Assembly: GCA_013138975.1 (NCBI GenBank)
Contig: WTBR01000065.1
Span: forward strand, 43,750-107,749
Direction: 5' to 3'
From: Bacteroidales bacterium
Lineage (GTDB): Bacteria > Bacteroidota > Bacteroidia > Bacteroidales > UBA12077
DNA length: 64,000 nucleotides
Position numbers and translations under genes: made by a program. Below, piece by piece: positions 6,837 through 62,396 of the stretch; position 1 is the first letter of the stretch, and every line of letters begins with the position of its first letter. Under the pieces are notes generated by a model. The model was not told the DNA's origin. It searched no databases and saw only the letters and a list, made by a program, of their open reading frames with translations.

Positions 6837-6857
6837 TTTTATATTTTAAATTATAAT

Positions 6858-43751: not shown

Positions 43752-46700
43752 ATTATAATCTCTTCCATGTTATTATTTAAATACTCAACTAATAATGCTA
43801 TAGTAGGTCTTTTAAAAATCTCTTTAACCCCTATTCTTACACCAAATTCTTTATGTAGTATACTAAATAATCTCATTGCTTTAAGAGAATTGCCTCCTAA
43901 TTCAAAGAAATCGTCCATTATTCCTATCTTTTCATATCGAAAGAACATATTCCATATCTCAGTTATTTTTACCTCCATTTCAGTCTTAGGTTCAACAAAT
44001 TCATTACTTAACTCAGGACGGGAATATAATTGAATTTCTGATTCTGATTCTGATTTAAGTTCCGTATTCTCTTTGGTCAAATTAACAACCCATTTTTCTA
44101 ATCTATCATTTAAGTCCGATATTGACTGAACCACATATCCAAGACCACACTCTTTGAGTGACAATATATTTTCTATCAATTTAGTTCCTTCAGCAGTTAG
44201 TACATACTTTTCACTTAATTCGTTTGCATCCTTTTTATCCCTGCTACTAAACCATCCATCCAAATCAACATTTATCCAAGGAATACTTCCATTTCGCAAA
44301 TCATTATTTATTACTCCATTCATATATATATTGGAACACGCATAAGCACCAAAACCTAAACCACCCAAAATAGATGATACAGACGATGTAACAAAGCAAA
44401 AATCGATACTATGCTTTTTTATAATTTGCCGTAAAGCCATTAATCCATAAAGTTTTGGATTGAAATGCTCTTTATTTATTTCTTCTGTTAATTTAGTTAC
44501 AGGAACAAAATAGTTTGAGTTTATCACTCCTGCAAAATGAAAAACTCCATTTATAAAGCCAAACTCTTTTTTACTTTCATTAAATACAAACTCTAGTTTT
44601 TTCTTATCACTAACATTTAGATTGTAAGTTCTTACAGTTCCTCCTTCTAATTCTATTTCTTTAATTACTAATATCTTTTTACTTATGCTATCATCAAGGC
44701 CTTTTTCATTTATCCAATTATCCCATTCATTTCTAGAAGGAAATTGACTTCTTCCTAATAATATTACTTTTGCTTTGTATACTTTACCTAAATATTCTGC
44801 AATATCAAGACCAATACCTCCAAGTCCACCAGTTATTATATAAACCCCTCCAGTTTTTAGCAAATTACTTTTTTCCTTAATTTCGATATTTATAGATCTA
44901 TAACTTTCTGCCAATCTTTTCCCATACCTGTATGCAATTACTCTCTCTTTACTTTTGGTAAATATTTCATTTATTATATTGCTTAATTGTAATTTTTCTT
45001 TAAAGCATGGATACTCAACATCTATAATTTTAGTGTCAATACCTGGTATCTCTTGACCAATTACTTTTAATAAGGTACCAATCATTCCTCTTTCTGGGCA
45101 AAGAGTTTCCTCATCGTTAATATTACATGCTCCACTTGTCACACTTACTATTTGAGAATTCTGACTTAAAAAATCTAACAATTCTTTAACGATATTTATA
45201 ATTGTCCTATAACCTTTGTCAATTTCAATATCATGAATATTATTCTCATCCTTGTTACCCGATATTTCCCCAAAATTCCAAAAATGTAATACTTTATTAA
45301 AAGACGTATCTTTTTGTATAAATTCATTTTTTAAACAAATCAAATCATCTATACAATTAGCTTTTATGCTATACTTATTTTTATCAAGAATTTCATAATT
45401 TAAGTCAAGCCAAACCTCTGTAATTTCATGATTATTTTCTTTGAGATTTTTTATTACATCTTTACACAATTTACTTGCATTACAAAAAATCAGTAACTTT
45501 TCACTTATAATAACATTTTTGTCTTTTTTAAGAAGTACAGCTTGTTCCCAAGAAGGTGCGTAAAACCATTCAGACATTCTTCGCCTTTCTTTAGGCGCAT
45601 ATTCGCTATTTTGAAGCTTTTGACTTATTAACTTTTCGATATTTACTTTTGATTCAAACTTGTGTTTATCAAACTCATAGCTTGGCAAAGAAACTTTATG
45701 TCTAATTTCTCCCGCATAATATTTCACCCAATCTATTTCAACCCCGTTCAGCCATAATTCACCAATTTGATTCGCAAAATATTCGTTATCATCTATTAAT
45801 TCTTTTTTATGTTTTATGAGATTTATTGCACTATCACTGTTTCGAACCTTTTCGTTAAGTTCGACAAATGAAACTAAACCTTTATCCGAACCAAGTTGTA
45901 CAAACACTGTATCTCCTTTCTTAAGAAGATTACTTATTCCTTTTGAGAATTTAATTGTCTCTCTTAAATGTCTACTCCAATATCTATCACTTGTAGCTTC
46001 CTCATTTTTTATCCAGTCACCACTTAAACCAGATATGTATGGAATTTTTGGTTCATTCAGTTTCATTTGAGATATTCTCTGTCTGAATTTTTCCATAATA
46101 GGAATCATCATATTTGAGTGTCCTGCTCTTGGAACTTTAAGCATTAGTGTATCAAATCCATCCTTTGTGACAACTTGTTCAAATTCTTCAATATCTTTTA
46201 CTTTACCAGACACAATACATAAATCTTGTCCATTAATTGCGGCTAACGAAATATCGCTATATTTAGATATATATTCATAAATTTTCTCTTCAGTCATATT
46301 TACAGACATCATTAAGCCTGGATCAACACTTTCCATCAGCTCACTTCTAAGTGCAACTACTTCAAGAGCATCTTCAAGACTAAATACTCCAGATAAACAA
46401 GCTACTCCTATTTCTCCAAAACTATGACCAATCATATAATCTGGCTTTATACCAATATTAATTAATAGCTTTGCTAAGCTATACTCAAATACGAATTTTA
46501 TAGGTTGTGTATATAATACCTGATTTATTTTACTTTCATTTTGACTTTTAGAATCATCTGCGGCAAATAAAATCTCTCGTATATCAAATCCCAATCTTTT
46601 TTTTATTATCTCGCTGCACTTATCAATACTTTCTTTAAAGCAAGATTCTTTTTCATACAATCCTCTCCCCATATTTACATACTGAGATCCTTGACCTGAG

Positions 46701-48274
46701 AACATAAACACAACATTTTTATTGGTATTTTTAGTAAGCTTGCTTTTTATTTTTAATTTATTATCAATATTTTCTATACCTTCTTTGATATCACTACAAA
46801 CAAACATTTTTCTATGAAAAAAATGTTTTCTACCTATTTGCAATGTATAAGCAATATCTGCAAAGTTAATGTCGGAATTCTTTACCAGATATTCTTTTAA
46901 GTTCTGAATGTTATTTTCTAAAGCTGTTTTTGTTTTTCCTGAGATTAATAAAATTTTACAATCTCTACTTATTATCGAAGACTTTATTTGTGGAGGCTCT
47001 TCTAATATTGCATGAGCATTTGTACCTCCAACTCCTAATGATGTTACTCCAGCTCTTAAAGGATACTTATCGTTTTTCCATTCTTTAGTTTCAGTATTAA
47101 CATAAAACGGACTATTATCAATATCAATTTTGGGATTAGGATTCTTAAAATGTAAACTTGGGACTAGTGTTTTATTATTTAAACACAATACCGTTTTTAT
47201 AAATCCAATTACACCCGCGGCTGCATCAAGATGCCCAGCATTACTTTTTACAGAACCTATTGCACAAGAATTTCGAATATCTAAATTGAATGCTGATTTT
47301 AATCCTTCAACTTCAACAGGATCACCTAAACTTGTAGCGGTGCCATGACATTCTACATAGCTAATACTTTCGAAATCTACTTCAGCCATTTGCATTGCAG
47401 TTCGTATTACTTCAGCTTGTCCTTCAATACTTGGAGCAGTAAACCCTACTTTTCTATTACCATCATTATTTATTGCAGTTCCTTTTACTATAGCATAAAT
47501 GTTGTCACCATCATCAAGAGCGTCTTGTAATCTTTTTAATACTACAATACCAATCCCATTTCCTATAACTGTACCACCAGCTTTTTCATCGAAAGATCGA
47601 TTATGTCCATCGGGAGAGTTTATCATTCCTTTCTTATAAGTATATCCCATTTTTTCAGGGTTGAAAGTTACCCCCCCAGCTAATGCAATATCACATTGAC
47701 CTGACAAGATTCCTAAGCAAGCCGAATTTATAGCAACCAATGAGGTTGAACATGCTGTATATATGGTTACGGCCGGCCCTCTAAGATTTAATTTATAAGC
47801 TATTCTTGTAGCTAGATTATCTTTATCAATTACCTGAGAATTTTCCCAAGTATATTGACCTTTTATATAATTAGATGCTTCCCAATTAAATTTCCCCGAA
47901 GCCCCAGCAAATACTCCAATAGATCCTTTAAATGTATCAGGTATACAACCAGCATCCTCTAATGCCTTCCATGCATGTTCATGAAAAAGACGCAATTGAG
48001 GATCCATAACTTCGACCTCGTTAGGAGCATAACCAAAGAAATTTGAGTCAAAGCATTCACTATCATGTAGATAACCTATAGCTTTAATATAATTAGGATT
48101 TTTTATTTCATTCTCACTGATTCCTGCTTCCAATAATTCATTATCATTAAAGAAAGTAATCAACTCTTTTCCTTTTTTCAAATTATTCCAAAAAGTCTCA
48201 ATATCCTTAGATTGTGGGAATTTTCCAGACATTCCTATTACTGCTATTTCCAAACCATTATAATTCTCTTCCAT
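43748..48274 (-). CDS. Type I PKS module, 1508 aa: KS-AT-KR-carrier
   Basis: KS has TACSTS (Cys175, nt 47750..47752), ECHGTATSLGDP and SNAGHLD. AT has FSGQGSQ, GHSFGE (Ser618, nt 46421..46423) and RAGHS. KR has YIITGGLGGIGLDIA and ..GAYACSN. The carrier has FFELGGNSLKA (Ser1463). Confidence 0.97.
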   Translation of the reverse strand: MEENYNGLEIAVIGMSGKFPQSKDIETFWNNLKKGKELITFFNDNELLEAGISENEIKNPNYIKAIGYLHDSECFDSNFFGYAPNEVEVMDPQLRLFHEHAWKALEDAGCIPDTFKGSIGVFAGASGKFNWEASNYIKGQYTWENSQVIDKDNLATRIAYKLNLRGPAVTIYTACSTSLVAINSACLGILSGQCDIALAGGVTFNPEKMGYTYKKGMINSPDGHNRSFDEKAGGTVIGNGIGIVVLKRLQDALDDGDNIYAIVKGTAINNDGNRKVGFTAPSIEGQAEVIRTAMQMAEVDFESISYVECHGTATSLGDPVEVEGLKSAFNLDIRNSCAIGSVKSNAGHLDAAAGVIGFIKTVLCLNNKTLVPSLHFKNPNPKIDIDNSPFYVNTETKEWKNDKYPLRAGVTSLGVGGTNAHAILEEPPQIKSSIISRDCKILLISGKTKTALENNIQNLKEYLVKNSDINFADIAYTLQIGRKHFFHRKMFVCSDIKEGIENIDNKLKIKSKLTKNTNKNVVFMFSGQGSQYVNMGRGLYEKESCFKESIDKCSEIIKKRLGFDIREILFAADDSKSQNESKINQVLYTQPIKFVFEYSLAKLLINIGIKPDYMIGHSFGEIGVACLSGVFSLEDALEVVALRSELMESVDPGLMMSVNMTEEKIYEYISKYSDISLAAINGQDLCIVSGKVKDIEEFEQVVTKDGFDTLMLKVPRAGHSNMMIPIMEKFRQRISQMKLNEPKIPYISGLSGDWIKNEEATSDRYWSRHLRETIKFSKGISNLLKKGDTVFVQLGSDKGLVSFVELNEKVRNSDSAINLIKHKKELIDDNEYFANQIGELWLNGVEIDWVKYYAGEIRHKVSLPSYEFDKHKFESKVNIEKLISQKLQNSEYAPKERRRMSEWFYAPSWEQAVLLKKDKNVIISEKLLIFCNASKLCKDVIKNLKENNHEITEVWLDLNYEILDKNKYSIKANCIDDLICLKNEFIQKDTSFNKVLHFWNFGEISGNKDENNIHDIEIDKGYRTIINIVKELLDFLSQNSQIVSVTSGACNINDEETLCPERGMIGTLLKVIGQEIPGIDTKIIDVEYPCFKEKLQLSNIINEIFTKSKERVIAYRYGKRLAESYRSINIEIKEKSNLLKTGGVYIITGGLGGIGLDIAEYLGKVYKAKVILLGRSQFPSRNEWDNWINEKGLDDSISKKILVIKEIELEGGTVRTYNLNVSDKKKLEFVFNESKKEFGFINGVFHFAGVINSNYFVPVTKLTEEINKEHFNPKLYGLMALRQIIKKHSIDFCFVTSSVSSILGGLGFGAYACSNIYMNGVINNDLRNGSIPWINVDLDGWFSSRDKKDANELSEKYVLTAEGTKLIENILSLKECGLGYVVQSISDLNDRLEKWVVNLTKENTELKSESESEIQLYSRPELSNEFVEPKTEMEVKITEIWNMFFRYEKIGIMDDFFELGGNSLKAMRLFSILHKEFGVRIGVKEIFKRPTIALLVEYLNNNMEEIII

Positions 48275-48276
48275 GA

Positions 48277-51200
48277 TTAACGTCTTGTTTTTTTTAATAA
48301 AATTTTCATTGATTCCTTACCTTTATTGATTTCTTCAGTTCTATTATTTTTAGAAACATCAAAATCACTAACACCTTCAATGTAATTAGCTAATTTTCTA
48401 ATAGATGTATTTCTAAATAAGTCCATAATATTTAATTTATAACCTGTTGAATTTGTTATCTTCTGAACTACTTTTATCATAAACAATGAATGACCACCTA
48501 GCTCAAAGAAATTAGCGTCAATTCCTATTTTTTCTTTTTCAATTCCTAAAACTTCAGACCAAACTTCCACAAACTTCTCTTCGATTTTATTTGTTGGTGC
48601 CTCATAATCGTCTCCCACTTTTACTTCTGGCCAGGGTAAATCTTTCTTATCTACTTTTCCATTTCCAGTTAATGGAATAGATTCTAACTCTACAAAATAA
48701 GCAGGTATCATGTAAGCAGGAAGTTCTCTAAATAGGTAATCTTTAATCTGATCAGTATTTAGTTTCTTATTATATAATACTATATATGAACATATTGATT
48801 TTTCTCCTTCCTTATCAAGTGCAATAGTCACACATTCTTTTATATCAGGATGTTTTAATAAGCAATTTTCAATTTCCTTAAGTTCAACTCTATATCCACG
48901 AATTTTTATTTGTTCATCTATTCTATCAATAAATTCCAAATTTCCATCGCATAGAAATTTTGCAAGATCTCCTGTTTTATATAATTTTTTCTCATTTAAT
49001 ATCGAATTTTCAACAAATTTCTCATCGGTTAAATCTTGATTACCAATATATCCCCTTGCAAGACTATCTCCTCCAATATATAATTCGCCACATACACCTT
49101 TTGGAACGGGATTACAATCTTCATCTAAAAGATAAATTCGAGAATTAGCCGCTGGGATTCCAATTGGAACTGCCTTATTCAAACTTTCTGATTTCTTATA
49201 TTGATAAGTCATACAACCAACAGTTGCTTCAGTTGGGCCGTATTCATTAAAAATCTCTATTTTGCCTCTGTATTTATCTAAAATTTCATTAGCCAATTTG
49301 GTTTCCAATTGTTCTCCACCAACAATAAATCTTTTAACATTAGACACATCCGAAGGAATTATACTCGAATCATCCCTGATTAGTTTTAAATGTGATGGGG
49401 TTAATTTTATTACTCCTGACTTATTATCATTCAATACCTTATTTAATAAAATCTCATTAGGTATATCGGAATATACAACAACTGCATTCCCGGATATCAA
49501 TGGGGTAAAGATTGAAGTTACAGTTAAATCAAAGGAAACGGATGTATAAAAAGGGAAATTTACTGTTTCATTTCCAACATAAACTTTTTTAGCCCACCAG
49601 ATATAATTTACAAGACTTCTATTTTCTATCATTACTCCCTTAGGCTTGCCCGTTGTACCAGAAGTATATATAATATAAGCTAAACATCCTGAATCATAAT
49701 TTATATTAATATTATTTTGGTCTTCATTAAGATTCCAAATTTCTTCAATTTTAATTATTTTCTCAATATCGATATTTAAAAATAATTGCTCTCTGTCATA
49801 ATCAGAAATATTCGAATCTAAAACGACCAATTTAGAATTACTATTCTCAATAATATATTTTTTTCTTTCTAATGGAAGATTTAAATCTATTGGAAGATAA
49901 GCTCCTCCGGCTTTTAAAACAGCTAATAAAGTAATTATCGTTTTTTCTGAACGCGAAATTAAAATTGCAACTACATCATTTGAACCTATTCCTTTCTGAA
50001 TAAACTGAACAGCTAAGGAATTAACCTTTTTCATTAAATCCTGGTAATTCATACTCTCTTCACCAAAAATTAATGCTTTAGCCAGTGGTGTTATGGAAGC
50101 TTGATTTTCTATTAATTCAATAATAGTTTTATCTTTTGGATAGCTTTCTACTGTTTTATTAAAATCAATTAGGGTTTCCTGCTTTTCTTGTTTTACTAAA
50201 ATATCAAATTCAGAAATCTTAATATCAGAATTTGCACATAACTGCTTAACTATTGATTTAAAATAGATTATAAATCTATCAATGGTCTCAGATTTAAAAA
50301 GTTTGGTACAATATTCCAAGTTCATCAACAATTGATCTCCAAAATCAAAGGCTGTCAAATTCAGGTCAAATTTTGATGTGCCTGTAAAATGTTCATTTGT
50401 AATGCTTTTTAATTCCCCTGCAAATTCATCATGATTCAATAAATTAAACATTACATCAAAAAGAGGATTTCGGCTTATATCACGCTCTAGAGATAATTTA
50501 TCAATCAAATCCTCGAATTGACATTCCTGATTATCAAAAGCTTCTAATGCATTATTTTTTACATTGATAATAAAATCAGACAATCGCTCATTCTTTTTTA
50601 ATTCATTTCTTAAAGCCAGTGTATTTACAAACATTCCAATTATTCCCTCCAAGTCTGAATGGCGTCTTGAAGCTACAGGAGTACCAATGATTATATCTTT
50701 ACTTCCACTTAATTTTGACAGCATAATATTGAATACTGCCAACAAAACCATAAAAAGTGTTGCATCATTTTCTTTTGCAATACTTTTTATAGCTGAAGTT
50801 TCTTTTTGAGTCAAAACATAATATACGGATGCTCCACTATGACTTTGCAATGAGGGTCTGTTATAATCATATGGTAATTCCAGTTTAGGTATTTCACCAG
50901 AATATTTTTCAACCCAAAAACTCTCTTGCGCTTTTATATTTTCTTTTTGGGTTTCGCTATTTTGCCATTCTGAAAAATCTTTATATTGTAATGGAATTGA
51001 TGGTAACTCAATTCCTTGTGACAATTGACTAAACTCTTTTTTTAGTATAACATGAGAAACTCCATCACTTATTATATGGTGCATATCATATAAAAGAAAA
51101 TTTCTACCTCCTTCAGTCTCAAACATTTCAACTCTAAGTAAAGGAGCTTTAGATAAATCAAATACTTTTACAAATCCCTTTCTTGCATTTCCAATTTCTT

Positions 51201-54200
51201 CATCTTTTATTTTAGTAAGCTTCACGTTAAACTTAACCTGATCATGTATCTTTTGAACTGGTTGTTCATCTATTATTTCAAAACTAGTTCTGAAACTTTC
51301 ATGACGTTCTATAAGCCTATCTATAACTTGAGTTATTTTTTCCTTATTTATTTCTTGCGATAACTCAATAACACCCGGTAAATTATAAGCAATACTATCT
51401 TTGTTTAATTGTTGAAGAAAATATATCCTTTTTTGAGCTGAAGATAAGTTATAATATGATTTCTCAGGAGCTTTTGAAATAGTTAAGAAACTTTCCTTAG
51501 ACGAAGATTGTATCCTATCTGATAATTTTTTTATTGTTTGATATTGGAATACTTCAATTAATCTTAATTTTACTTCAAATTTTTTATGAATTTTCGATAT
51601 TAATAAAGTCGCTCTTAAAGAGTGTCCTCCTAAAGTAAAGAAGTTATCTTCTATTCCAATTTGATTTGCATCAATGTTTAGTATTTCTGACCAAATTTCC
51701 GTTAAGCATTTTTCAAGCTCATTTGTTGGAGGAGCATAGTCTTCTCCCGCTTCAATTTTTGGAACTGGTAATGCCTTTCTATTTATTTTTCCATTTGGTG
51801 TTAGCGGAATAAAATCCAATTCTATGAAAAATAAAGGGATCATATAGTCAGGTAGAGTTTTTGACAGGTGATCTCTAATTGACTTTATAAGTTCTTGTTT
51901 TCTTAAACCAGCAACAAAATAAGCACAAATAAATTTTTCTCCCTTATCATCTTCGCGATCTATAACAACTACTTGTTTTACTTGTTTTAGTTCAAGAATA
52001 CAGTTTTCAATTTCATTAAGTTCGATTCTAAAACCTCTAATTTTAACTTGATGATCTATACGTCTTAGAAATTCAATATTTCCACTTTTATGGTGTCGTA
52101 CCATATCACCGGTTTTAAATATTTTTGAATCAGACAACTTATTTTCTACAAATTTCTCATGAGTAAGTTCCGGCTGGTTTAAATATCCTCTTGACAAACC
52201 ATCACCTGAAACACATAATTCCCCGGATATGCCCATTGGAACAGGGGTTCCTTGATCATCTAAAATAAAAGTTTTTAGATTAGATAATGGTTTCCCAATA
52301 AACATTGGTAAACCGTTATTTACATAAATCTTATTACTGCTACTATTTTCTTTTAATAATAACTCTTTTATTTTTTCGAGTTCTATGGTTGAATTGTTTT
52401 CATCAAAAAGTTCATTTGCTATTTCCATTTGATTTTCCAGAACCCTAAATATATCCTGATATGTTGTTAATGGATTCGACAAAACTACTCTAAGTACTAC
52501 AACATCTATTTCTTTTGCGTATTTTGTATGGGTAAGTGTTGTTTTTGAAACAAAAGTTTCACCTTTGTAAAATTGATGATTTTGTAATTTTAAATTTACT
52601 TCATTAATTTCATTCTGATATTTATTTAAATCATTTTTATTAGCAATCATATCCCTGAATTTTTCAGGAATATATCGATAACAAACAATGTTTAACTGAG
52701 GTTTCATAATGAGTTCAAAGCAATCCAAAGTTTCTATTAGCTTAGATAAAAATACAGATGAATTAATTCCTTGCTCAATTAAGGATGCATATCCCTTTTT
52801 TCCAATAAGATGAAGAGAAGCATGCAAACTCATAGAAATTGCTGATCTTGAACCTTCAATTGTAAATCGCCCTGTATCAAATGAATTATTAGTAGCTTGA
52901 TAATTAGCAGTAACAGAACCGTACTGCAATAATTTCGGGTCTTTAAATAAACAAACACTTATGCCTTGTGGCAAATAAAGTTGTTTATGACCACAGAATG
53001 TAATTGAATCTGAAAGCTCTATACCATTTAATCTGTTGGCAAATTTCTCTGAAAACATAGTTGCTCCACCCCAAGCGGCATCCACATGAAAATGGATATT
53101 AAACTCTTTGGCAAGCTCTCCCATTTCCACTAATGGATCTATTTCTCCTGTTTCTGTTGTACCTGCTATTGCAACTATTGCAATAATTAACTTCTTACTT
53201 TTATTGCATTCAATAATAATAGATCTAAGGTTATCAATATCTAACTTCCCATCTTTATTGTAATCAGCATAAATAATATTATCGGTTCCCATTCCAAGAA
53301 TCGACGCTGATTTCTTTATGGAATAATGCATTAACCTTGATCCAATAATTACCATATCATCATAGCCATGTTTCTCTAATGCTTTATAAATACTGTGTTG
53401 CATTACAGTATTATTTTCATCTAATGCAAGCAATTTTTTATTTCTTGCTGCAAGCATTGCGGAAATGTTGGATGTAGTACCCCCGGTTGAAACTATTCCC
53501 AAGTTTGTATTAACTGTTTGTATATATTCAGAATAAAATTCATCATTAAATGAATAAAATAAACGATGAAGTATAGCAAGTGCCTCCCTTTCAACAAATG
53601 TTAAGGATTTTGAAGTTTCTATTTTTACCAAATTTTGATTTAGTTGGGAAATCAGTTTACTAAAATCATTTACAAAATCGGGTAATGCAGAGGTCATATG
53701 ACCTATATTCTGTGGCGCTGCTGAATTAATAACAAATGGTAATATGTCTTTATAAAGGATCTTGTTATATTCATCTAAGGATATTGGATAATCTGGGGCT
53801 GTACTTTTCTTAAACCTATTTGCTATTGAATCCAAACTAACATTTGGCATTGTAATAGCTCCAGGTTTTAAAATATCTATGGCTGGATTTATATGAATAT
53901 TCTTAAAATATTTATGAACATCCTCAATATAAAACCTTGTTACTTCGTGATATGTTGCATCTGCACTAACTTCAGATGAACCATAAACATTTATTAGTTT
54001 TGAATTTGTAAATTCTTTATAAAACTCTTCTGCTAAATCTAAATTTAAAGCTTCGCCACTACAAAATACATATTTTAAACTTTTTAAGATCTCCCTATTC
54101 TGCTTTATTGAAATAATTGTCTTTAAGAAAGAAGGAACTAATACAGTTCTAGTAATCTTATATTTATCTAATAAATCGATAAATATTTCGATGTCTTTTG

Positions 54201-57200
54201 TGTTTTCTTCGGAGAATATATAGAGTGGATCTTTATTAAGTAGTGATGAAAATATTTCTGCCACATGATCAACAAAACTTACTGACGTTTTTTGACAAGA
54301 TCTTTCTCCATCTCCAATTGGATAAGTATTCCACAACCAGTATAGCCTGTTGATAATACCTTTACTTTTCCCCATCACTCCTTTTGGGTTACCTGTAGAT
54401 CCTGATGTATAAATTATATATGTTATGTCATCCGGTAATATTTTAATTTTTAAATTATTTACTGTTTCCTTTTTTATCTCTTTGTCATGATTCTCTGGAC
54501 AAATCACATTAGCTTTTATATTAGAAAACAGCGATTTATAAATATCCTTGGTTATTAATATTTCTGCATTGCTTTCTTTTAGCATAAAATTTAACCGATC
54601 GGATGGGTAGTTCGGATCTAAAGGAATATAAATGCCTCCGGTTTTAATAATTGCTAACATTCCAACGATCATGTCAATGGAACGTTTTTCGCAAATTGCT
54701 ATTAATGTTTGAGGTTTTACACCATTTCTAACCAAATAACCGGCCATTTGATTTGCCCTTTTGTTCAACTCAAAATTTGTAATTTGATTATCGCCTTCAA
54801 TTAAAGCAATTCGGTCTCCATTTATCTTTACTTGTTCTTCAAATAATTGTTTTATACTTTTTTCTACTGGATACTCCATTTTAGTATCATTAAAATCAAA
54901 TAGTATTTTCTTTCTTTCATCTAATGATAATAGATCAATTTCCAATATCTTATTGCTCTTTTTAGATGATAACTGCTGAACTATTTGTCTAAAGTATCTT
55001 ATGTATTGCTCTATTGTTTGAGGTTTAAATAATTTTGTGCAATACTCAAACCCTAATAGAATTTGATCACCATAATCAAATGCTGTTAGGGTAAGATCAA
55101 ATTTCGAAATACCATTTTTATGGTTAAATTCTTCGTAATCTAACGCTGAAAGGTCTCCTGAAAACTCTTTCATATTAAACATATTGAACATTACATCAAA
55201 TACCGGATTACGACTTGTATCTCTTTCTACAGATAACTTCTCAACTAAATCTTCGAATTGATATTCCTGATTATCAAAAGATAATAAAGTATTCTGCTTA
55301 ACCTCTTGCAGGAACTCCTTAACGGTTTTAAAAGATGAAGGATAATTTCTTAATGGCAAAGTATTAATGAACATACCTACAATTCCTTCTAAATCCGAAT
55401 GAAGACGAGAAGCTATAGGAGTGCCAATAACAATATCATCCTGACCACTTAATTTTGATAATAAAATATTATATATAGATAAAAGAGCCATAAAAAGGGT
55501 GGAATCACCTTCCTTTGCAATGCTTCTAACCATTTTTGTCTCCTCTTTACTCAATACAAATGATGCAAATGCTCCCTTTGTACTTTGAATTGGAGGTCTT
55601 GAATAGTCAGTTGGTAAATTTAAAATAGGGAGTTCATCTGAAAATTGATTAATCCAAAAATGTTCTTTTTCTTTTATACTATTTTGCTGATCTTCACTAT
55701 TTTGCCATTCACAGAAATCTTTGTATTGTAAAGTCAAAGGTTCAAGTTCTTCTCCTTCCATTAATTTCAAGAAATCTTGTTTTAGTATTTCGTTTGATGT
55801 TCCATCACTTATTATATGATGAAGATCAAACATTAAAACGGGATTACTATTTTCTATATTTACAATCTCAACTCTTAATAATGGTGCTTTACCCAGATCA
55901 AAAGGGCGCACAAAGCTTTCTCTTTGTGCTTGCAATTCAGACTCCACAATTGTACTCTCTTGTATTTCAAAAAATACATCTTTTTGTATTTGTTGGATAG
56001 GCACGTCATTTATTATCATAAAACATGTTTGAAAGCTTTCATGTCTTAGCACCAAGGTTTTAAATGCTGTCGCTACTTCCTCTTTCTTAAAATTCTGATT
56101 TAAATTAATAATTCCCGGCATATTATAAGAGATACTTTCGGGGTTCAACAACTGCAAAAAATACATTGATTTTTGTGCAGATGATAAATTATAGTATTCT
56201 TTTATTTTTGCTTTAGGAATTGAATTAAATTCCTTTTTATTACTAGTTTGAACCCTTTTTGCTTGATCTTTAATTGTTGAAAGCAAAAACATATCTCTCA
56301 AAATAAACTCAACTCCGAATTCCTTATGTATTTTCCCTGCTAAAATAGAAGCTTTAAGCGAATGCCCTCCAATATTAAAGAAGTTTGCGTTTATACTTAT
56401 TTCTGATGAAGAGATGTTTAAAACCTTAGCCCAAATAGTTGTTAATTTTTTTTCAATATCATTTGAGGGAGCAATATATTGATCGCCAGCGTTTATTTTT
56501 GGTATAGGTAATTTCTTTCTATCTATCTTCCCATTTGCTGTTAGTGGTATTGCATCTACATTTATAAAAAAAGAAGGTATCATATATTCGGGCAAGTGAA
56601 ACATTAAAGTTTCTTTTATTGACTCTATTATTTCATTCTCTCCATTTATAACAAGGTATGCACACAGGTATTTCTCTTTATTAGTATCTTCTCTTACAAT
56701 AACTACGCATTCTTTTACTTCATTATTTTTTAATATACTGTTTTCAATTTCTCCAATTTCAATCCTATATCCCCTAATTTTAACTTGATTATCAATTCTT
56801 CCGATAAACTCTAACTCCCCATTGGATAACCATCGAGCCAAATCACCTGTTTTGTATAAAGTCTCTCCCTCTATAAACGGGTCGCTTATAAATTTCTCAT
56901 GAGTTAGTTGATCATTTGCAAAATAGCCTTTCCCAACTCCATCTCCGGATATACACAGTTCGCCTGCAATACCTATAGCTTGCATTTTATTATCTTCATT
57001 TAAAATATAGATATTTGTGTTTCCAATCGGTTTTCCAATATTCAAAACATCTTTATTATCTAATTTTTTTATAGCTGACCAAATTGTTGTTTCAGTTGGC
57101 CCATACATATTATATAATAATCCAGGGAAAAACTCTTTAACTGTTTGATATAAACCAAAAGGAAATTCTTCTCCTCCAACTAAAAGTTTACCAATCTTTG

Positions 57201-59502
57201 CTAAATCTTTTCTTCCTTCTGCTTCTTCAATAATTAATTTTAACCTCGAAGGTGTTAGTTGTAATATATTTACTTTATGTTTTTCAATTAATTTAGAAAT
57301 TAATCTCGGTTCTGTTTGTTCTTCATTATTCCCTAGCACCATTTTAGCACCACTTAACAATGGTACAAACAGTTCCAGTCCAAAAATATCGAAAGCGACT
57401 GTGGTTAATGATAGTAATGTGTCAGTTTGTTTTGTTTGTATTAGTTCGAACATTGAAAATACAAAATTCACAACATTCTGATTATCTATCATTACCCCTT
57501 TTGGTTCTCCTGTTGATCCTGACGTGTATATTACATATGCAAGGTTTTCTTTGTTAGTTTTTATGGATTCAAATACTGTTTCTTCAAAATTTATATCCTT
57601 TAAAATATCAATTTGTGTTGCTTTAATATTTTCACTTCTTTTATTATTTACTAACACATATTCTATTTCACTTTTCTCAATAATTAACTGGTTTCTTTCT
57701 TCAGGATATAAAGGATCCATTGGTAAATATGCTGCTCCGGCTTTCAAGATTCCCAATATCCCTATTATCATTTCAATACTTCTATCGATCATTAAACCAA
57801 TCAATTGTCCTGACTCCACTCCTCTTTTAGTCAACTCTATAGCTACACTATTTGATAGTTCATCTAACTCCAAAAATGTTTTACTTTCATTATTAAAAAT
57901 TAATGCTGTTGCTACCGGAAGTTTTATTACATTTTCTTTAAAAAGCTGAATTATGGTTTTATCCTTAGGGTAGTTGGTTTTAGTTTTATTAAACTCAAAT
58001 AAAATATGGTTTTTTTCTTCCTTCGTGATAATTGATAAATCTGAAAGTTTTCTATCAAAATCACCATTTAAGTTTTGTACAATAATTTTAAAATATGCAA
58101 TAAATCTTTCTATAGTTTTAGGGCTAAACAATTTTGTACAATACTCAAAGTTCAATAATATCTGATCTCCACAATCTACGGCTATAAGATGTAAATCTAA
58201 TTTGGCTACATGTTCTGTATGTATAAATTCTCTTTCCAACTTAGATAAATCTTCTTTATGATCGCTTATATTATTTAAATTAAATGAAACATCAAATATT
58301 GGATTTCTGCTTGTATCTCTGTAATGGATTACTTTCTCTACTAAATCTTCAAATTGGAAGTCTTGATTTTCAAATGCTTGTAATGCTGCAGATTTAACTT
58401 CATCAAAGAATTCTAATAATGTTTTTTCCTTATTAGGAAAACTCCTGAATGGCAAGGTATTTATAAATACACCAACAATCTCATCTAAATCAGAATGTCT
58501 CCTACCTGCAAGCGGTACTCCGACAATGATATCATTTTGCCCACTTATTTTTGACAGTAATATTTTAAACGCCGACAATAGCGCCATAAATAAAGTAACA
58601 TCATACTTTGAGACTATTTTTCTCAAAATATTCGTTTCATCAACAGTTAAAGCAATCTTTACAGAAGCTCCTTCTGTTGATTGATACACCGAACGTGGAT
58701 AATCAGTTGGTAAATCAAGAATTGGTAATTCATCTGAGAATCTATTTACCCAATATTTCTTTTGACTTTTTATATTATCTTGTTGTTCTTTACTATTTTG
58801 CCATTCTGAAAAATCTTTGTATTGTAATTTTAATGGTATTAGTTCTTTCCCTTTTATTAAATCAAAAAAATCATGTGTTAATATCTTAAAAGAAGTTCCA
58901 TCGCTAATAATGTGGTGCATATCAAGCATTAAAACAGACTCATCTTCCTTTCTAACCAACTGAACTCTAAACAAGGGTGCCTCACTAAAAATGAATGGCT
59001 TAACAAATTGCTTCAATACAATTTCTAAATCATTTTCAGCAATTTCTTTTTCATGTATTTTAAATGTAACTTTTTCATGTACTTGTTGCACCGGGTGATC
59101 ATCAATAATTTTAAAGCTTGTACGAAAATTTTCATGTCGGTCAATCAGTTTTTCGAAAGCATCCCTTAATCTGTCGATATCCTCATTTCTTGATAAAGGA
59201 ATCAAATGTTGCACATTATATACCATACTTTCCGGATTCATCTGTTGAAGGAGAAACATTCGTTTCTGGGCGGATGATAATGGATAATATTCTTTATAAT
59301 CTGCTTTTGTTATTGTTATAAACTTATCTTTATTATCAATTCCTGATAAGTATTTTAATAGTTCGCTCTTATTCTGTTTAATTTCCTCAATAATATCTTT
59401 TGGAATTTTTCCTTGGGATGATTGAATTTTGAGCTTATTATTATCTACTATTACCTTAATATTTAGTTTATAAAGTTTTGACAATAAATCTTTTATTTTC
59501 AT
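48277..59502 (-). CDS. NRPS, 3741 aa: docking-C-A(Gly-like)-T-C-A(interrupted by a PLP decarboxylase domain; beta-Ala-like code)-T-C-A(Asn-like)-T
   Basis: Three HHIISDG C domains (aa 196-202, 1228-1234, 2808-2814). Three A domains with cores at aa ~659-668, 1698-1708 and 3279-3288. Three GGHSL carriers (Ser1048, 2628, 3672). It is a single uninterrupted ORF. Confidence 0.97.
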   Translation of the reverse strand: MKIKDLLSKLYKLNIKVIVDNNKLKIQSSQGKIPKDIIEEIKQNKSELLKYLSGIDNKDKFITITKADYKEYYPLSSAQKRMFLLQQMNPESMVYNVQHLIPLSRNEDIDRLRDAFEKLIDRHENFRTSFKIIDDHPVQQVHEKVTFKIHEKEIAENDLEIVLKQFVKPFIFSEAPLFRVQLVRKEDESVLMLDMHHIISDGTSFKILTHDFFDLIKGKELIPLKLQYKDFSEWQNSKEQQDNIKSQKKYWVNRFSDELPILDLPTDYPRSVYQSTEGASVKIALTVDETNILRKIVSKYDVTLFMALLSAFKILLSKISGQNDIIVGVPLAGRRHSDLDEIVGVFINTLPFRSFPNKEKTLLEFFDEVKSAALQAFENQDFQFEDLVEKVIHYRDTSRNPIFDVSFNLNNISDHKEDLSKLEREFIHTEHVAKLDLHLIAVDCGDQILLNFEYCTKLFSPKTIERFIAYFKIIVQNLNGDFDRKLSDLSIITKEEKNHILFEFNKTKTNYPKDKTIIQLFKENVIKLPVATALIFNNESKTFLELDELSNSVAIELTKRGVESGQLIGLMIDRSIEMIIGILGILKAGAAYLPMDPLYPEERNQLIIEKSEIEYVLVNNKRSENIKATQIDILKDINFEETVFESIKTNKENLAYVIYTSGSTGEPKGVMIDNQNVVNFVFSMFELIQTKQTDTLLSLTTVAFDIFGLELFVPLLSGAKMVLGNNEEQTEPRLISKLIEKHKVNILQLTPSRLKLIIEEAEGRKDLAKIGKLLVGGEEFPFGLYQTVKEFFPGLLYNMYGPTETTIWSAIKKLDNKDVLNIGKPIGNTNIYILNEDNKMQAIGIAGELCISGDGVGKGYFANDQLTHEKFISDPFIEGETLYKTGDLARWLSNGELEFIGRIDNQVKIRGYRIEIGEIENSILKNNEVKECVVIVREDTNKEKYLCAYLVINGENEIIESIKETLMFHLPEYMIPSFFINVDAIPLTANGKIDRKKLPIPKINAGDQYIAPSNDIEKKLTTIWAKVLNISSSEISINANFFNIGGHSLKASILAGKIHKEFGVEFILRDMFLLSTIKDQAKRVQTSNKKEFNSIPKAKIKEYYNLSSAQKSMYFLQLLNPESISYNMPGIINLNQNFKKEEVATAFKTLVLRHESFQTCFMIINDVPIQQIQKDVFFEIQESTIVESELQAQRESFVRPFDLGKAPLLRVEIVNIENSNPVLMFDLHHIISDGTSNEILKQDFLKLMEGEELEPLTLQYKDFCEWQNSEDQQNSIKEKEHFWINQFSDELPILNLPTDYSRPPIQSTKGAFASFVLSKEETKMVRSIAKEGDSTLFMALLSIYNILLSKLSGQDDIVIGTPIASRLHSDLEGIVGMFINTLPLRNYPSSFKTVKEFLQEVKQNTLLSFDNQEYQFEDLVEKLSVERDTSRNPVFDVMFNMFNMKEFSGDLSALDYEEFNHKNGISKFDLTLTAFDYGDQILLGFEYCTKLFKPQTIEQYIRYFRQIVQQLSSKKSNKILEIDLLSLDERKKILFDFNDTKMEYPVEKSIKQLFEEQVKINGDRIALIEGDNQITNFELNKRANQMAGYLVRNGVKPQTLIAICEKRSIDMIVGMLAIIKTGGIYIPLDPNYPSDRLNFMLKESNAEILITKDIYKSLFSNIKANVICPENHDKEIKKETVNNLKIKILPDDITYIIYTSGSTGNPKGVMGKSKGIINRLYWLWNTYPIGDGERSCQKTSVSFVDHVAEIFSSLLNKDPLYIFSEENTKDIEIFIDLLDKYKITRTVLVPSFLKTIISIKQNREILKSLKYVFCSGEALNLDLAEEFYKEFTNSKLINVYGSSEVSADATYHEVTRFYIEDVHKYFKNIHINPAIDILKPGAITMPNVSLDSIANRFKKSTAPDYPISLDEYNKILYKDILPFVINSAAPQNIGHMTSALPDFVNDFSKLISQLNQNLVKIETSKSLTFVEREALAILHRLFYSFNDEFYSEYIQTVNTNLGIVSTGGTTSNISAMLAARNKKLLALDENNTVMQHSIYKALEKHGYDDMVIIGSRLMHYSIKKSASILGMGTDNIIYADYNKDGKLDIDNLRSIIIECNKSKKLIIAIVAIAGTTETGEIDPLVEMGELAKEFNIHFHVDAAWGGATMFSEKFANRLNGIELSDSITFCGHKQLYLPQGISVCLFKDPKLLQYGSVTANYQATNNSFDTGRFTIEGSRSAISMSLHASLHLIGKKGYASLIEQGINSSVFLSKLIETLDCFELIMKPQLNIVCYRYIPEKFRDMIANKNDLNKYQNEINEVNLKLQNHQFYKGETFVSKTTLTHTKYAKEIDVVVLRVVLSNPLTTYQDIFRVLENQMEIANELFDENNSTIELEKIKELLLKENSSSNKIYVNNGLPMFIGKPLSNLKTFILDDQGTPVPMGISGELCVSGDGLSRGYLNQPELTHEKFVENKLSDSKIFKTGDMVRHHKSGNIEFLRRIDHQVKIRGFRIELNEIENCILELKQVKQVVVIDREDDKGEKFICAYFVAGLRKQELIKSIRDHLSKTLPDYMIPLFFIELDFIPLTPNGKINRKALPVPKIEAGEDYAPPTNELEKCLTEIWSEILNIDANQIGIEDNFFTLGGHSLRATLLISKIHKKFEVKLRLIEVFQYQTIKKLSDRIQSSSKESFLTISKAPEKSYYNLSSAQKRIYFLQQLNKDSIAYNLPGVIELSQEINKEKITQVIDRLIERHESFRTSFEIIDEQPVQKIHDQVKFNVKLTKIKDEEIGNARKGFVKVFDLSKAPLLRVEMFETEGGRNFLLYDMHHIISDGVSHVILKKEFSQLSQGIELPSIPLQYKDFSEWQNSETQKENIKAQESFWVEKYSGEIPKLELPYDYNRPSLQSHSGASVYYVLTQKETSAIKSIAKENDATLFMVLLAVFNIMLSKLSGSKDIIIGTPVASRRHSDLEGIIGMFVNTLALRNELKKNERLSDFIINVKNNALEAFDNQECQFEDLIDKLSLERDISRNPLFDVMFNLLNHDEFAGELKSITNEHFTGTSKFDLNLTAFDFGDQLLMNLEYCTKLFKSETIDRFIIYFKSIVKQLCANSDIKISEFDILVKQEKQETLIDFNKTVESYPKDKTIIELIENQASITPLAKALIFGEESMNYQDLMKKVNSLAVQFIQKGIGSNDVVAILISRSEKTIITLLAVLKAGGAYLPIDLNLPLERKKYIIENSNSKLVVLDSNISDYDREQLFLNIDIEKIIKIEEIWNLNEDQNNININYDSGCLAYIIYTSGTTGKPKGVMIENRSLVNYIWWAKKVYVGNETVNFPFYTSVSFDLTVTSIFTPLISGNAVVVYSDIPNEILLNKVLNDNKSGVIKLTPSHLKLIRDDSSIIPSDVSNVKRFIVGGEQLETKLANEILDKYRGKIEIFNEYGPTEATVGCMTYQYKKSESLNKAVPIGIPAANSRIYLLDEDCNPVPKGVCGELYIGGDSLARGYIGNQDLTDEKFVENSILNEKKLYKTGDLAKFLCDGNLEFIDRIDEQIKIRGYRVELKEIENCLLKHPDIKECVTIALDKEGEKSICSYIVLYNKKLNTDQIKDYLFRELPAYMIPAYFVELESIPLTGNGKVDKKDLPWPEVKVGDDYEAPTNKIEEKFVEVWSEVLGIEKEKIGIDANFFELGGHSLFMIKVVQKITNSTGYKLNIMDLFRNTSIRKLANYIEGVSDFDVSKNNRTEEINKGKESMKILLKKTRR
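52309..53940 (-). other. Group II PLP-dependent amino-acid decarboxylase-like domain nested in the second A domain (aa ~1855-2398)
   Basis: Motifs are STGGTTSNISAMLAARN (aa 2005-2021), HVDAAWGG (nt 53065..53088) and SITFCGHK (Lys2173 codon at nt 52984..52986). It is flanked by A5 (NVYGSSE, nt ~53971..53991) and by IGKP / A6 GELCVSGD (nt 52201..52224). Confidence 0.8.
59338..59502 (-). other. TubC-N-like N-terminal docking domain (3741-aa NRPS)
   Basis: IKDLLSKLYKLNIKVIVDNNKLKIQSSQGKIPKDIIEEIKQNKSELLKYL shows the same pattern as the N-terminus of the 2365-aa NRPS. Confidence 0.65.
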
Positions 59503-59798: not shown

Positions 59799-62396
59799 TT
59801 ACACTTCTACTTCTTCTGATATATTCTCCATTTCCACTCCTTGAAAAATTAGCATCGCATATTCTAAAATTGTTGGTGCCTCAAAAACTTTAACTAAAGG
59901 AATATTTACATCAAATTCTTTATGAACTTTAGCTGTTAAAATTGTTGCTTTTAGGGAATGTCCTCCAAGATCAAAGAAATTTGCATTGGTACTTAATTTC
60001 TCTTGAGGTATTTTAAATAAATCAGACCATATCTTAACGAGTTTCTCTTCTGTTTTATTTGCCGGAGCAATGTATTCTTCCTGAACTTTCATTTCAGGTG
60101 TCGGAAGAGCTGTTTTGTTTATTTTTCCATTACTATTTAATGGCAGACTGTCTAACTCAACAAAATAAGACGGAATCATATAGTCAGGTAATGAATTTTT
60201 TAAATAAGCTTGTAACTCTGCTTGATTAAATTGTTCTTTACCCTCAAGGTATGCGCATAAGTACTTATCATCGTTTTCCTCCCTAACTATAACTACACAA
60301 TTCTCAACATTCCTATTTTTATTGATTGCATTTTCTATTTCTCCAAGCTCAATTCTAAAACCTCGAATTTTTACTTGATCATCAATCCTACCTATAAACT
60401 CCATATTACTATTAGGAAGCCAACGAGCAAGATCGCCTGTACGATATAATTTTTCTCCCTCAATAAACGGATGTGCGATAAATTTTTCATTGGTTAATTG
60501 CTCCTTGTTCAGATAAGCTTTCGCTAAACCTACACCAGAAACACATAACTCTCCCGGGATACCAATAGGCTTTAGCTGTTCACTATATTTATCCAATATA
60601 TAAACCTGCATATTATTAATAGGCAATCCTATAGGCACATTCGTTTCTTTATTATTATCATATTTATAAATCATACAACCTACTGTTGCTTCGGTTGGGC
60701 CATACTCATTATAAATTATAACTTCAGGATTCTTCTCTGTTATATTTCGACATAAATTAGAGTCCAATAATTCACCACCAACAATAAATTTATTAATACT
60801 GGTTGTTTTGTTTTTTTCTAAAAGCTGACTAAATACACGTAAATGTGATGGCGTAGCCTTTATTATGTTTACTTGGTCTCTTAGAACCATATCCTCAAGT
60901 ATTTCCAGAACATCTCCTTCAGGGTAAATTATTATTTTATTACCAGATAATAATGGTAAATAAATTGATGAAATGGTTAAATCAAAACTCATACTGGTAT
61001 ACAATGGCATACTAACTTCTTGTGAGTCTATATAATGATGTATTCCCCATTGTACATAATTAACTAAACTGGAATGAGCTATAACAACTCCTTTTGGTAT
61101 ACCTGTTGAACCTGATGTATAAATGATATATGCAGGATCATTCGATGAATACTTTATTTCTATGTTTTCACATGATCCTGAATATATATTAGGATCACTC
61201 ATGTCAAGCAGATTGTTCGATGGAATCCCTTGAAGGTTATTCGTGTTTTGAGTAATCAATTCAGAATGCGAAAGCAAAATTGACAATTCACTATCTTCAA
61301 TCAAATATTGTTTTCTGGAATTCGGGTAGTTTTTATCTATAGGCACATAAACACCTCCAACCTTTAATGTCGCTAAAATTGCAATAATTGAATCAATTGA
61401 TCGATTCAACATTATACCTATTCTCGAACCTACTTCTGCACCCTTACTTTGTAATAAATGGGCTAACTGATTCGATTTATTGTTTAAGTCTCTGTAATTT
61501 AATCGTTGTCCTTGAAATTCCAATGCAATATTGTCAGGAGATTTTTCAACCTGTGCTTCGAACAAATCAATTATCGTCTTATTATCTGAATAATTTGCCT
61601 TTGTTTCATTATTTTTTTGCAATTGAGCATATTTATCTTCATCATTGATAAGATCAATCTCTGCTAAAGGCTTATCTATATTTTCATAAAAAGATTCAAG
61701 AACCTTAGAATAAAAATTAAATAATTTTACTATCGTTTCATCTTTATAGAAATTAGAATTATATTTTATTTTGCATGATAATGAATCATTATTTACTGAA
61801 AATGAAAATAGTAAGTTAAATTTTATGTTGCTTAAATAATCCTCTGTTTGTAAGTTTTCTAATATTATTCCTATATCAAAAAACGGATAAAAATCATCTT
61901 TCTCATATGGTATCTTAAGCTTCTTTATTATATGTTCAAGAGGATAATTTTGATTTTTATTCGCTTCGATAATAATATCTTTTGTTTTTAATAATAACTC
62001 TTTAACACTTTGCTTTTCATCTACATTATTACGTAATACAAGAATTGTATTAATGAAATTTGCCCCACTTGTCTGCTTATATATAGATGTTCCTATTGAA
62101 ATGTCATTTTCAAAAGAATGCTTACGGATTAAAATAAACAATGCTGTTTTTAAAATAAATTGCAATTTTAAATCAGATCCTTTGCTTAACTTATTTATGC
62201 TTGAAAATATTTCATTTCCTATTTCAAATTCCAAATACTTGTATTCTGTTGTTTTGGTTTTAACATCAGGAAAATCACTTGGAAAATTACTTTTTTTGAA
62301 ATCTTCACCTAGTATTTTTAACCAATACTGCATTTCTTCTTGTTCTTTTTGAACTAATATTGTTGTTTTATCTGCATTCAATTTCTCGTCTTTCAT
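59799..62396 (-). CDS. NRPS module, 865 aa: (C-terminal-lobe-only C-like region)-A(Asn/Asp-like)-T
   Basis: The N-terminal ~250 aa align only with the post-HHxxxDG half of C domains (QYWLKILGEDF..FPSDFP ~ YWLKKFSDEIP..LPLDYSRP). A cores are YTSGSTGIPKG, NEYGPTE, YRTGDLARW and NGKINK. The carrier is FFDLGGHSLKA, followed by the acidic tail ENISEEVEV. Confidence 0.95.
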   Translation of the reverse strand: MKDEKLNADKTTILVQKEQEEMQYWLKILGEDFKKSNFPSDFPDVKTKTTEYKYLEFEIGNEIFSSINKLSKGSDLKLQFILKTALFILIRKHSFENDISIGTSIYKQTSGANFINTILVLRNNVDEKQSVKELLLKTKDIIIEANKNQNYPLEHIIKKLKIPYEKDDFYPFFDIGIILENLQTEDYLSNIKFNLLFSFSVNNDSLSCKIKYNSNFYKDETIVKLFNFYSKVLESFYENIDKPLAEIDLINDEDKYAQLQKNNETKANYSDNKTIIDLFEAQVEKSPDNIALEFQGQRLNYRDLNNKSNQLAHLLQSKGAEVGSRIGIMLNRSIDSIIAILATLKVGGVYVPIDKNYPNSRKQYLIEDSELSILLSHSELITQNTNNLQGIPSNNLLDMSDPNIYSGSCENIEIKYSSNDPAYIIYTSGSTGIPKGVVIAHSSLVNYVQWGIHHYIDSQEVSMPLYTSMSFDLTISSIYLPLLSGNKIIIYPEGDVLEILEDMVLRDQVNIIKATPSHLRVFSQLLEKNKTTSINKFIVGGELLDSNLCRNITEKNPEVIIYNEYGPTEATVGCMIYKYDNNKETNVPIGLPINNMQVYILDKYSEQLKPIGIPGELCVSGVGLAKAYLNKEQLTNEKFIAHPFIEGEKLYRTGDLARWLPNSNMEFIGRIDDQVKIRGFRIELGEIENAINKNRNVENCVVIVREENDDKYLCAYLEGKEQFNQAELQAYLKNSLPDYMIPSYFVELDSLPLNSNGKINKTALPTPEMKVQEEYIAPANKTEEKLVKIWSDLFKIPQEKLSTNANFFDLGGHSLKATILTAKVHKEFDVNIPLVKVFEAPTILEYAMLIFQGVEMENISEEVEV

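Follow-up and report, generated by a model that had tools for sequence, protein, structure and literature searches.

A PanP-like decarboxylase nested in an adenylation domain of a Bacteroidales non-ribosomal peptide synthetase: a candidate self-supplying β-alanine module

Here, we describe a peptide synthetase module in which one catalytic domain is nested inside another. The module is encoded in a 64,000-nucleotide stretch of DNA from a Bacteroidales bacterium (GenBank assembly GCA_013138975.1, contig WTBR01000065.1, positions 43,750 to 107,749 of the forward strand); we refer to this whole stretch as “the window”, and coordinates are counted within it unless another locus is named. The gene of interest encodes a tri-modular non-ribosomal peptide synthetase (NRPS) of 3741 amino acids (aa), in which Pfam recognizes three condensation (C), three adenylation (A) and three carrier (T) domains. 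The AMP-binding profile matches in four stretches, because the second A domain (A2) is split. The whole of the split domain occupies 51763–54870 (aa 1545–2580), and its two parts are separated by a decarboxylase that depends on pyridoxal phosphate (PLP). The exact 3741-aa protein has a single match on record, a Logan contig of run SRR10375099. An initial annotation of the window had proposed that the nested enzyme makes an ω-amino acid (β-alanine from aspartate, or GABA from glutamate) in cis, which the surrounding A domain then activates and loads. The features on which our discussion rests are collected in Table 1.

The adenylation domain that surrounds the decarboxylase has its motifs in intact order: YTSGSTGNPKG (A3, aa 1698), NVYGSSE (A5, aa 1838), GELCVSGDGLSRGY (A6, aa 2427), LPDYMIP (A9, aa 2550), and NGK (A10, aa 2570). 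A-domain matches in Pfam and in the Protein Data Bank lie on either side of the insert, and the two parts together hold the core motifs of an NRPS adenylation domain (PF00501/PF13193; A3, A5, A6, A9, and A10), including the A10 lysine. The insertion site lies between A5 and A6. Here, the insert takes the place of a short loop in GrsA that follows the strand bearing pocket positions 330 and 331.

Table 1. Positions of the nested module, its landmark residues, and the neighboring genes in the window.
Feature	Position	Strand	Basis
Tri-modular NRPS of 3741 aa: docking domain (TubC_N) followed by C-A-T, C-A(decarboxylase)-T, C-A-T	48277..59502	-	ORF (open reading frame) list, translation, Pfam
Module-2 A domain, N-terminal part, aa 1545–1849: A3 YTSGSTGNPKG, A4 FVD, A5 NVYGSSE; 9 of 10 specificity positions	53956..54870	-	
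V1744-D1745 codons: amine-binding Asp at Stachelhaus position 236, not 235	54268..54273	-	Gapless alignments to GrsA and LgrA module 2
Nested insert, 546 aa, aa 1850–2395: N-linker, PanP-like PLP decarboxylase, C-linker	52318..53955	-	PF00282, TIGR03799, homologues, Protein Data Bank relatives
PanP-homologous core, aa 1883–2361: H2059, D2141, H2172-K2173, Y2201, R2338	52420..53856	-	
K2173 (PLP lysine) codon	52984-52986	-	
R2338 codon	52489-52491	-	
Module-2 A domain, C-terminal part, aa 2396–2580: A6 GELCVSGDGLSRGY, A9 LPDYMIP, A10 NGK with K2572	51763..52317	-	
T2 carrier domain, aa 2600–2664: GGHSL serine motif at aa 2625–2629; predicted acceptor of the activated β-amino acid	51511..51705	-	Pfam PP-binding, motif search
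Further upstream gene with a C domain at its end; the cluster extends past the right window edge	62885 to beyond 64000	-	
NRPS gene upstream, with a partial C-like domain followed by A and T; its code is DLSKIGEVGK (canonical D235)	59799..62396	-	Pfam, alignment
Downstream polyketide synthase (PKS) module: KS-AT-KR-ACP	43748..48274	-	Pfam
Terminal NRPS: C-A-T-C-A-T-TE; codes DAWFLGNVVK and DVRHLAILA-, both D235	36654..43751	-	Pfam, alignment
MacB/FtsX-type exporter	33212-35590	-	

To read the specificity code of A2, MAFFT was used to align GrsA-PheA with all A domains in the cluster. At positions 235–331, the GrsA sequence used gives the published DAWTIAAIC, and it is therefore reliable for nine of the ten code positions, the tenth being the lysine of the NGK motif. 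The resulting code, VDAVFSVADK (V1744, D1745, A1748, V1787, F1813, S1815, V1839, A1847, D1848, and K2572), is residue for residue the one given in the initial annotation, which had also placed the aspartate that anchors the amino group at position 236 instead of 235. This displacement withstands realignment. SFVDHVAEIF of module 2 and SFDASVWEMF of GrsA are of equal length between conserved residues and align without gaps; in a separate phmmer alignment, FVDHVAEIF pairs gaplessly with FDISVAEIF of LgrA module 2. Since both alignments are gapless between the conserved phenylalanines, misalignment is ruled out as the source of the shift, and the aspartate was not restored to position 235. Within the cluster, the shift is confined to module 2: the other five A domains (DILQLGMIWK, DLTKIGEVGK, and the three codes listed in Table 1) all have Asp235.

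Published codes of the β-alanine or 3-amino-2-methylpropionate class include those of CrpD-A1 from cryptophycin biosynthesis (GDAVFSLADK) and KasE-A1 (LDGTISLADK), as well as SurC-A1 from surugamide (LDTTVSLADK) and CdeI-A1 from cadaside (LDTTVSLGDK); all four have D in second, S in sixth, and D in ninth position (PMC12305651, kasichelin supplement, Fig. S44). Module 2 shares this pattern (xD..xS..DK), with Asp236 instead of Asp235, Ser301, Asp331, and Lys517, and is identical to CrpD-A1 at eight of ten positions. Unlike A2, the four published domains are uninterrupted. The comparison supports assigning the module-2 code to the β-alanine/β-aminoisobutyrate class. The initial annotation had instead compared the code with a putative Ebony-type code, VDWVISLADK, counting 7/10 matches; our literature search did not find this code. 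Literature searches on PanP with NRPSs, and on Asp235 with β-alanine, returned nothing useful.

The insert itself matches Pyridoxal_deC (PF00282) at aa 1917–2277. Among the NCBIfam models, the best by about 350 bits is that of PanP, a PLP-dependent aspartate 1-decarboxylase (TIGR03799; 496.3 bits, E 9e-149, profile positions 43–522 of 522); L-2,4-diaminobutyrate (DABA) decarboxylase follows with 148 bits, MfnA with 126, and the glutamate decarboxylase GAD with 44. The initial annotation had named a group II decarboxylase of the GAD/CSAD/PanP type, of which PanP proves to be the closest, and had considered that a DABA, lysine, or ornithine decarboxylase would speak against its proposal. We rejected such an identity on the basis of these scores; the products of those enzymes would also leave no carboxylate for the A domain. 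Among solved structures, those closest to the insert are 8zpi, 4rj0/4rit (a decarboxylase from Sphaerobacter), GAD65/67, DesA, and GADL1. Among the best 120 matches in a protein search, the closest proteins are 55–58% identical to the insert, and 9 of the 120 also carry AMP-binding domains. Identity to PanP is 41–46%, with proteins named PanP, mostly from Nostocales, at 44–46%.

All landmarks of a group II, fold-type-I PLP decarboxylase are present in the insert: the stacking His2059, Asp2141 for the pyridine nitrogen, His2172-Lys2173, the loop Tyr2201, and a C-terminal Arg2338 in the motif LRVVLSNP. His2059, Asp2141, Lys2173, Tyr2201, and Arg2338 do not vary among the nested, the allied stand-alone, and the canonical PanP sequences. 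More broadly, 94 of the 154 columns conserved in canonical PanP are kept in ≥90% of nested sequences. The PLP and catalytic residues are invariant in 21 nested sequences from several phyla, indicating purifying selection on catalysis. By comparison with the GAD65/67 sequence (FFRMVISNP), Arg2338 would be the residue that binds the distal carboxylate of the substrate; that it is conserved suggests that a second carboxylate is free in the substrate. An arginine with this role has been described in GAD67 (PMC3870968). These comparisons support a PanP-type decarboxylase, for which aspartate would be the best guess at a substrate, judging from the nearest characterized family and the code of the host.

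An AlphaFold2 model of aa 1545–2580, built from a 30-sequence alignment, has a mean pLDDT of 72.9 and a pTM of 0.54. The A core (pLDDT 80–97) and most of the decarboxylase core are confidently modeled. By contrast, pLDDT falls below 50 in the two linkers (model residues 297–344 and 840–864) and, within the decarboxylase, in the N-terminal helices and the catalytic loop. Such a combination of confident cores and low-confidence linkers is consistent with a domain that folds on its own and is flexibly tethered; at a pTM of 0.54, the inter-domain geometry is too uncertain for active-site distances. In the free relatives of the decarboxylase, the N-terminal segment and the active site are completed only in the dimer. 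By analogy, the nested enzyme would dimerize in the same way, and would thereby pair two synthetase chains at module 2.

Decarboxylases nested in this way recur well beyond the window. Species-representative genomes were scanned with an alignment of nested inserts, and a locus was counted if the match spanned both junctions in a large NRPS ORF. There are 20 such loci, all with the decarboxylase at the same site, from Cyanobacteria (Coleofasciculus, Acaryochloris, Scytonema, Richelia, Plectonema, and Hyella), Bacteroidota (Bacteroidales, Aquimarina, Maribacter, Chryseosolibacter, and Chitinophaga), Fibrobacteraceae, and Proteobacteria (Jeongeupia, Motilimonas, Parabeggiatoa, and Wenzhouxiangellaceae). 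The domain layout is C-A(decarboxylase)-T in all four loci tested. The module has its closest relatives in Aquimarina, Maribacter, and Marivirga, the best match in the genome scan being from Aquimarina (57% identity).

The presence of the insert is tightly linked to one specificity code. The N-terminal half of the host domain is readable at 18 of the genome loci, and 17 of these hosts have the code VD[AVW][VTL][FIT]S[LIV][AG]DK, together with an FVDH motif and the YGS[ST]E variant of A5. A second protein search gave a similar picture, with [VI]DA[VL]F[ST][IL]AD in 33/34 further nested proteins; across the nested relatives, the shifted aspartate is written F[VI]DH. The codes of cyanobacterial nested hosts agree with CrpD-A1 at nine of ten positions. 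We also compared 200 A domains from retrieved proteins, a sample biased by its retrieval through similarity to the host, and found Asp236 in 35 of 36 nested hosts versus 13 of 164 other domains (Fisher p ~5e-27). Twelve of those 13 are uninterrupted relatives of the same type, and the remaining one is a truncated nested protein (P0146).

The one readable genome locus that departs from the code is in a metagenome-assembled gammaproteobacterial genome (L014, Gammaproteobacteria bacterium jk18x34bins.42; locus 6001–7767 plus upstream sequence). Its pocket reads VGVTFSIAGK, with both Asp236 and Asp331 replaced by glycine and the FVDH motif changed to VVGH. This is either a decaying copy or one with a changed substrate.

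Relatives of the host domain also occur without an insert, and read VDWVVSLADK, VDWVISLGDK, or VDAVISLADK. We take VDWV[VI]SL[AG]DK to be a β-alanine code. Two uninterrupted relatives, P0148 and P0149 (L086, 1655–7684), are A-T-C-A-T proteins in which the second A domain is of the host type (FVDHV, YGSSEVAADVT; codes VDVVISLADK and VDAVISLADK) and is 65% identical to the host over the A part. These proteins have a loop of ~25 aa where their relatives carry a 550-aa decarboxylase, a state that is either ancestral or the result of a clean deletion. Within 17.7 kb of P0149, there is no gene for a decarboxylase. Siblings that lack the decarboxylase thus share the code, suggesting that this type of A domain works on a substrate drawn from a pool.

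On balance, we favor the view that module 2 is a self-supplying β-alanine module, which would decarboxylate free aspartate first and load the product second. In this pathway, the nested PanP-like enzyme would convert free L-aspartate to β-alanine. The host A domain would adenylate that β-alanine and load it onto T2, and C2 would then couple the upstream chain to the T2-bound β-alanine. The displacement of the pocket aspartate from position 235 to 236 would suit an amino group that is one carbon further from the carboxylate. We infer both the identity of the substrate as aspartate and the order of the two steps from sequence comparison. The make-and-load proposal of the initial annotation is supported in so far as it concerns the class of the code, the affinity of the insert to PanP, and the coupling of insert and code; the order of steps is favored rather than proven.

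Several observations weigh against this interpretation. First, the PanP model has a curated equivalog cutoff of 606.1 bits, which the insert, at 496.3 bits, does not reach; hence, we file the insert as PanP-like rather than PanP. Second, the sub-clade to which it belongs has replaced residues that are invariant in canonical PanP (D2170C, G2182S, and R2311F) and has mostly lost the arginines at positions 2204 and 2320, meaning that the same substrate as that of PanP is not guaranteed. Third, a neighbor-joining tree with 8zpi and 4rj0 as outgroup sets the PanP-like sequences apart as a whole (100/100 bootstraps), whereas the division between canonical PanP (Vibrio, Shewanella, Pseudoalteromonas, and Nostoc) and a sister group of nested and some free-standing sequences has bootstraps of only 58 and 32 of 100. 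Fourth, CrpD-A1, the nearest published code, selects 3-amino-2-methylpropionate and not β-alanine itself. Fifth, a free-standing member of the clade, P0017 (L083, 6659–10257), lies between a lysine/ornithine N-monooxygenase and an acetyltransferase, with TauD and a MetRS-like/cupin gene in its surroundings; this context resembles that of a hydroxamate or diamine siderophore, a hint that some members of the clade may act on a substrate other than aspartate. Lastly, an analogy can be drawn with other catalytic domains nested in A domains (methyltransferases, ketoreductases, and oxidases/monooxygenases). Like the decarboxylase of module 2, these are auxiliary domains placed in a loop of an A domain that is not destroyed by the insertion; their sites are a2-a3, a4-a5, or a8-a9, and they act on the intermediate while it is bound to the carrier, which by analogy would favor chemistry on the assembly line. 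Module 2 differs from them in its insertion site, a5-a6, and in that its insert most likely acts before activation.

The tree did not resolve nested and free-standing members into clean clades, and the signature residues were more informative. Cys2170, Ser2182, and Phe2311 are identical in nested and free-standing members of the clade, and Arg2338 is kept in all, suggesting that nesting came about without remodeling of the active site.

The strongest competitor concerns the order of events. The initial annotation had dismissed α-decarboxylation of a thioester-bound residue as chemically implausible. This is too strong, since the argument holds only if the α-carboxylate forms the thioester. In closthioamide biosynthesis (CtaD, CtaE, and CtaF), aspartate is held on CtaE via its side-chain carboxylate and is decarboxylated on the carrier by CtaF, which refuses free aspartate; in butirosin biosynthesis, glutamate is treated in the same way (PMC7183216). 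With this precedent for side-chain-tethered substrates, chemistry alone does not settle the order. A2 could likewise load aspartate via its β-carboxylate, leaving the PLP domain to strip the α-carboxylate from β-aspartyl-S-T2 and produce β-alanyl-S-T2. Aspartate bound in this manner would have its amino group at the place of that of β-alanine, compatible with the Asp236 pocket, and nesting beside T2 is usual for domains that act on carrier-bound substrates. Alternatively, the decarboxylase dimer could pair two synthetase chains and hand β-alanine directly to the adjacent A pocket, which is conceivable given that pocket positions 330/331 lie just a few residues before the insertion point. Such action on the assembly line, whether by decarboxylation of the tethered residue or by direct hand-over, is a real rival to prior decarboxylation of free aspartate, but we consider it unlikely. 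CtaD/E/F and the butirosin enzymes BtrI/J/K resemble the proposed module 2 in their net reaction, aspartate to carrier-bound β-alanine (or glutamate to γ-aminobutyrate, GABA), and in having a dedicated PLP decarboxylase. However, CtaF and BtrK belong to the ornithine/diaminopimelate/arginine decarboxylase family, with a fold different from that of the PF00282 insert; they are separate proteins that accept tethered substrate only and work with ATP-grasp loaders, and module 2 does not fit this type of system (ornithine/diaminopimelate/arginine decarboxylase, ATP-grasp loader, and stand-alone carrier). Nor does the code of the host contain an added basic residue for an extra carboxylate; it is essentially the code of uninterrupted A domains and of CrpD-A1. 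Moreover, sibling A domains operate without any decarboxylase, and the nested enzymes share their signature residues, as well as Arg2338, with free-standing ones.

A second alternative retains the logic of decarboxylation and loading but replaces aspartate with another acidic substrate: 3-methylaspartate (giving 3-amino-2-methylpropionate), glutamate (giving GABA), or 3-hydroxyaspartate (giving isoserine). The substrate of CrpD-A1, the sub-cutoff PanP score, and the altered invariants, arginines among them, all lend themselves to this view, and the group II superfamily includes GAD, CSAD, and GADL1. We nonetheless judge it to be rather improbable. GAD-family models score 44 bits against 496 for PanP, and the uninterrupted relatives have what we take to be a β-alanine code. 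Genes for glutamate mutase, methylaspartase, or a hydroxylase were not found among the annotated ORFs of the window, and we rejected a methylaspartate supply route on this ground.

That the nested domain is an idle relic or a structural or dimerization element, in a module fed from the cellular β-alanine pool, is very improbable: uninterrupted siblings do carry the same code, and decay does occur in the nested family, as L014 with its lost pocket aspartates and the disrupted genes P0003 and P0005 (see below) indicate, but this view is at odds with the conserved PanP columns and the invariant PLP and catalytic residues across phyla.

A decarboxylase within an A domain is already known from JamL of jamaicamide biosynthesis, and module 2 is another member of this group. 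In JamL (Lyngbya majuscula, UniProt Q6E7J8), as in module 2, PF00282 lies within an A domain that is followed by a carrier; the two are likened by listed domain order. JamL is a PKS-NRPS hybrid protein of a cyanobacterium, whereas module 2 sits in a tri-modular NRPS of the Bacteroidota. Presumably, the jamaicamide unit that corresponds to JamL derives from β-alanine. Edwards et al. reportedly observed, in 2004, the incorporation of labeled β-alanine into jamaicamide; if so, an A domain of the JamL type accepts free β-alanine. A survey published in 2013 on assembly-line PLP domains gives the layout of JamL as KS-AT-ADH-KR-CP-C-HxxPF-A-PLP4-A-CP and, citing Edwards et al. 2004, states that the function of the nested domain is “not so far clarified” (PMC3870968). 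The same survey lists a Coxiella NRPS in which Pyridoxal_deC is C-terminal and not nested (PMC3870968). JamL does not appear by name among the best 120 matches to the insert, or among the best 120 to a cyanobacterial nested query, and a paper on jam transcription makes no mention of it. “Decarboxylase domains” mentioned in papers on thiamyxin and on heteromeric enzymes are unrelated. In other pathways, including those of the four published A domains above, β-amino acids are supplied in trans by separate enzymes; examples are CrpG in the case of cryptophycin (a methylaspartate decarboxylase of the pyruvoyl type) and, in that of kirromycin, KirD.

Some relatives of the nested module are incomplete or unusually arranged. 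In two proteins from Coleofasciculaceae (P0003 and P0005; contigs of ~380 kb), the nested gene appears to be disrupted just past the decarboxylase; the A domain lacks its C-terminal portion, and the two gene calls share one unrelated tail (...RLPTHKYIFWTNMAIFYRRVLRGSYM). P0004, an 870-aa protein from a JGI metagenome, has a conserved decarboxylase fused to a degenerate N-terminal half of an A domain, with no A3 motif and with the pocket LDIHFT-FI. This protein stops right after the decarboxylase, and may be a decarboxylase that retains a vestigial A-domain stub. P0010, a cyanobacterial nested relative of 914 aa, would contain an A domain that is interrupted twice, the additional insert resembling a c-di-GMP receptor; a Microcoleus NRPS that lacks the decarboxylase (P0209) also has a PilZ match.

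Free-standing members of the clade can also be found within NRPS clusters, examples being P0013 and P0025, the latter from Clostridium felsineum. The Clostridium gene (L082, 3716–9614) lies directly downstream of a C-A-T-C NRPS. The A domain of that NRPS has an unusual pocket, VAWEVTADD, with aspartate absent at 235/236 and present at 330/331. Since this code differs from that of module 2, the pair is not simply a trans version of the nested module.

Database labels tend to conceal the NRPS nature of the nested proteins. C-A(decarboxylase)-T synthetases of ~1700 aa (P0121–P0145 and others) are labeled by the NCBI pipeline (PGAP) as “aminotransferase class V-fold PLP-dependent enzyme”, and JGI records name such synthetases “putative pyridoxal-dependent aspartate 1-decarboxylase”.

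The neighbors of the tri-modular gene form a hybrid NRPS-PKS cluster, with all cluster genes on the minus strand (Table 1). At the start of the gene at 59799–62396, before its A and T domains, a C-like domain is represented by its C-terminal half alone (Pfam profile positions 190–452). Among the other products of the window, whose G+C content is ~30%, is a TonB-type receptor containing STN and CarboxypepD_reg domains.

For this orphan hybrid cluster, our analysis yields a residue prediction, with β-alanine following glycine. If action on the assembly line or direct hand-over were true instead, it would be without known precedent among canonical NRPS modules and among fold-type-I decarboxylases. 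Modules in the style of JamL are not a one-off: they occur in at least four phyla and are tightly linked to a single specificity code. Should module 2 prove to be self-supplying, NRPS engineering could use it as a portable β-alanine part.

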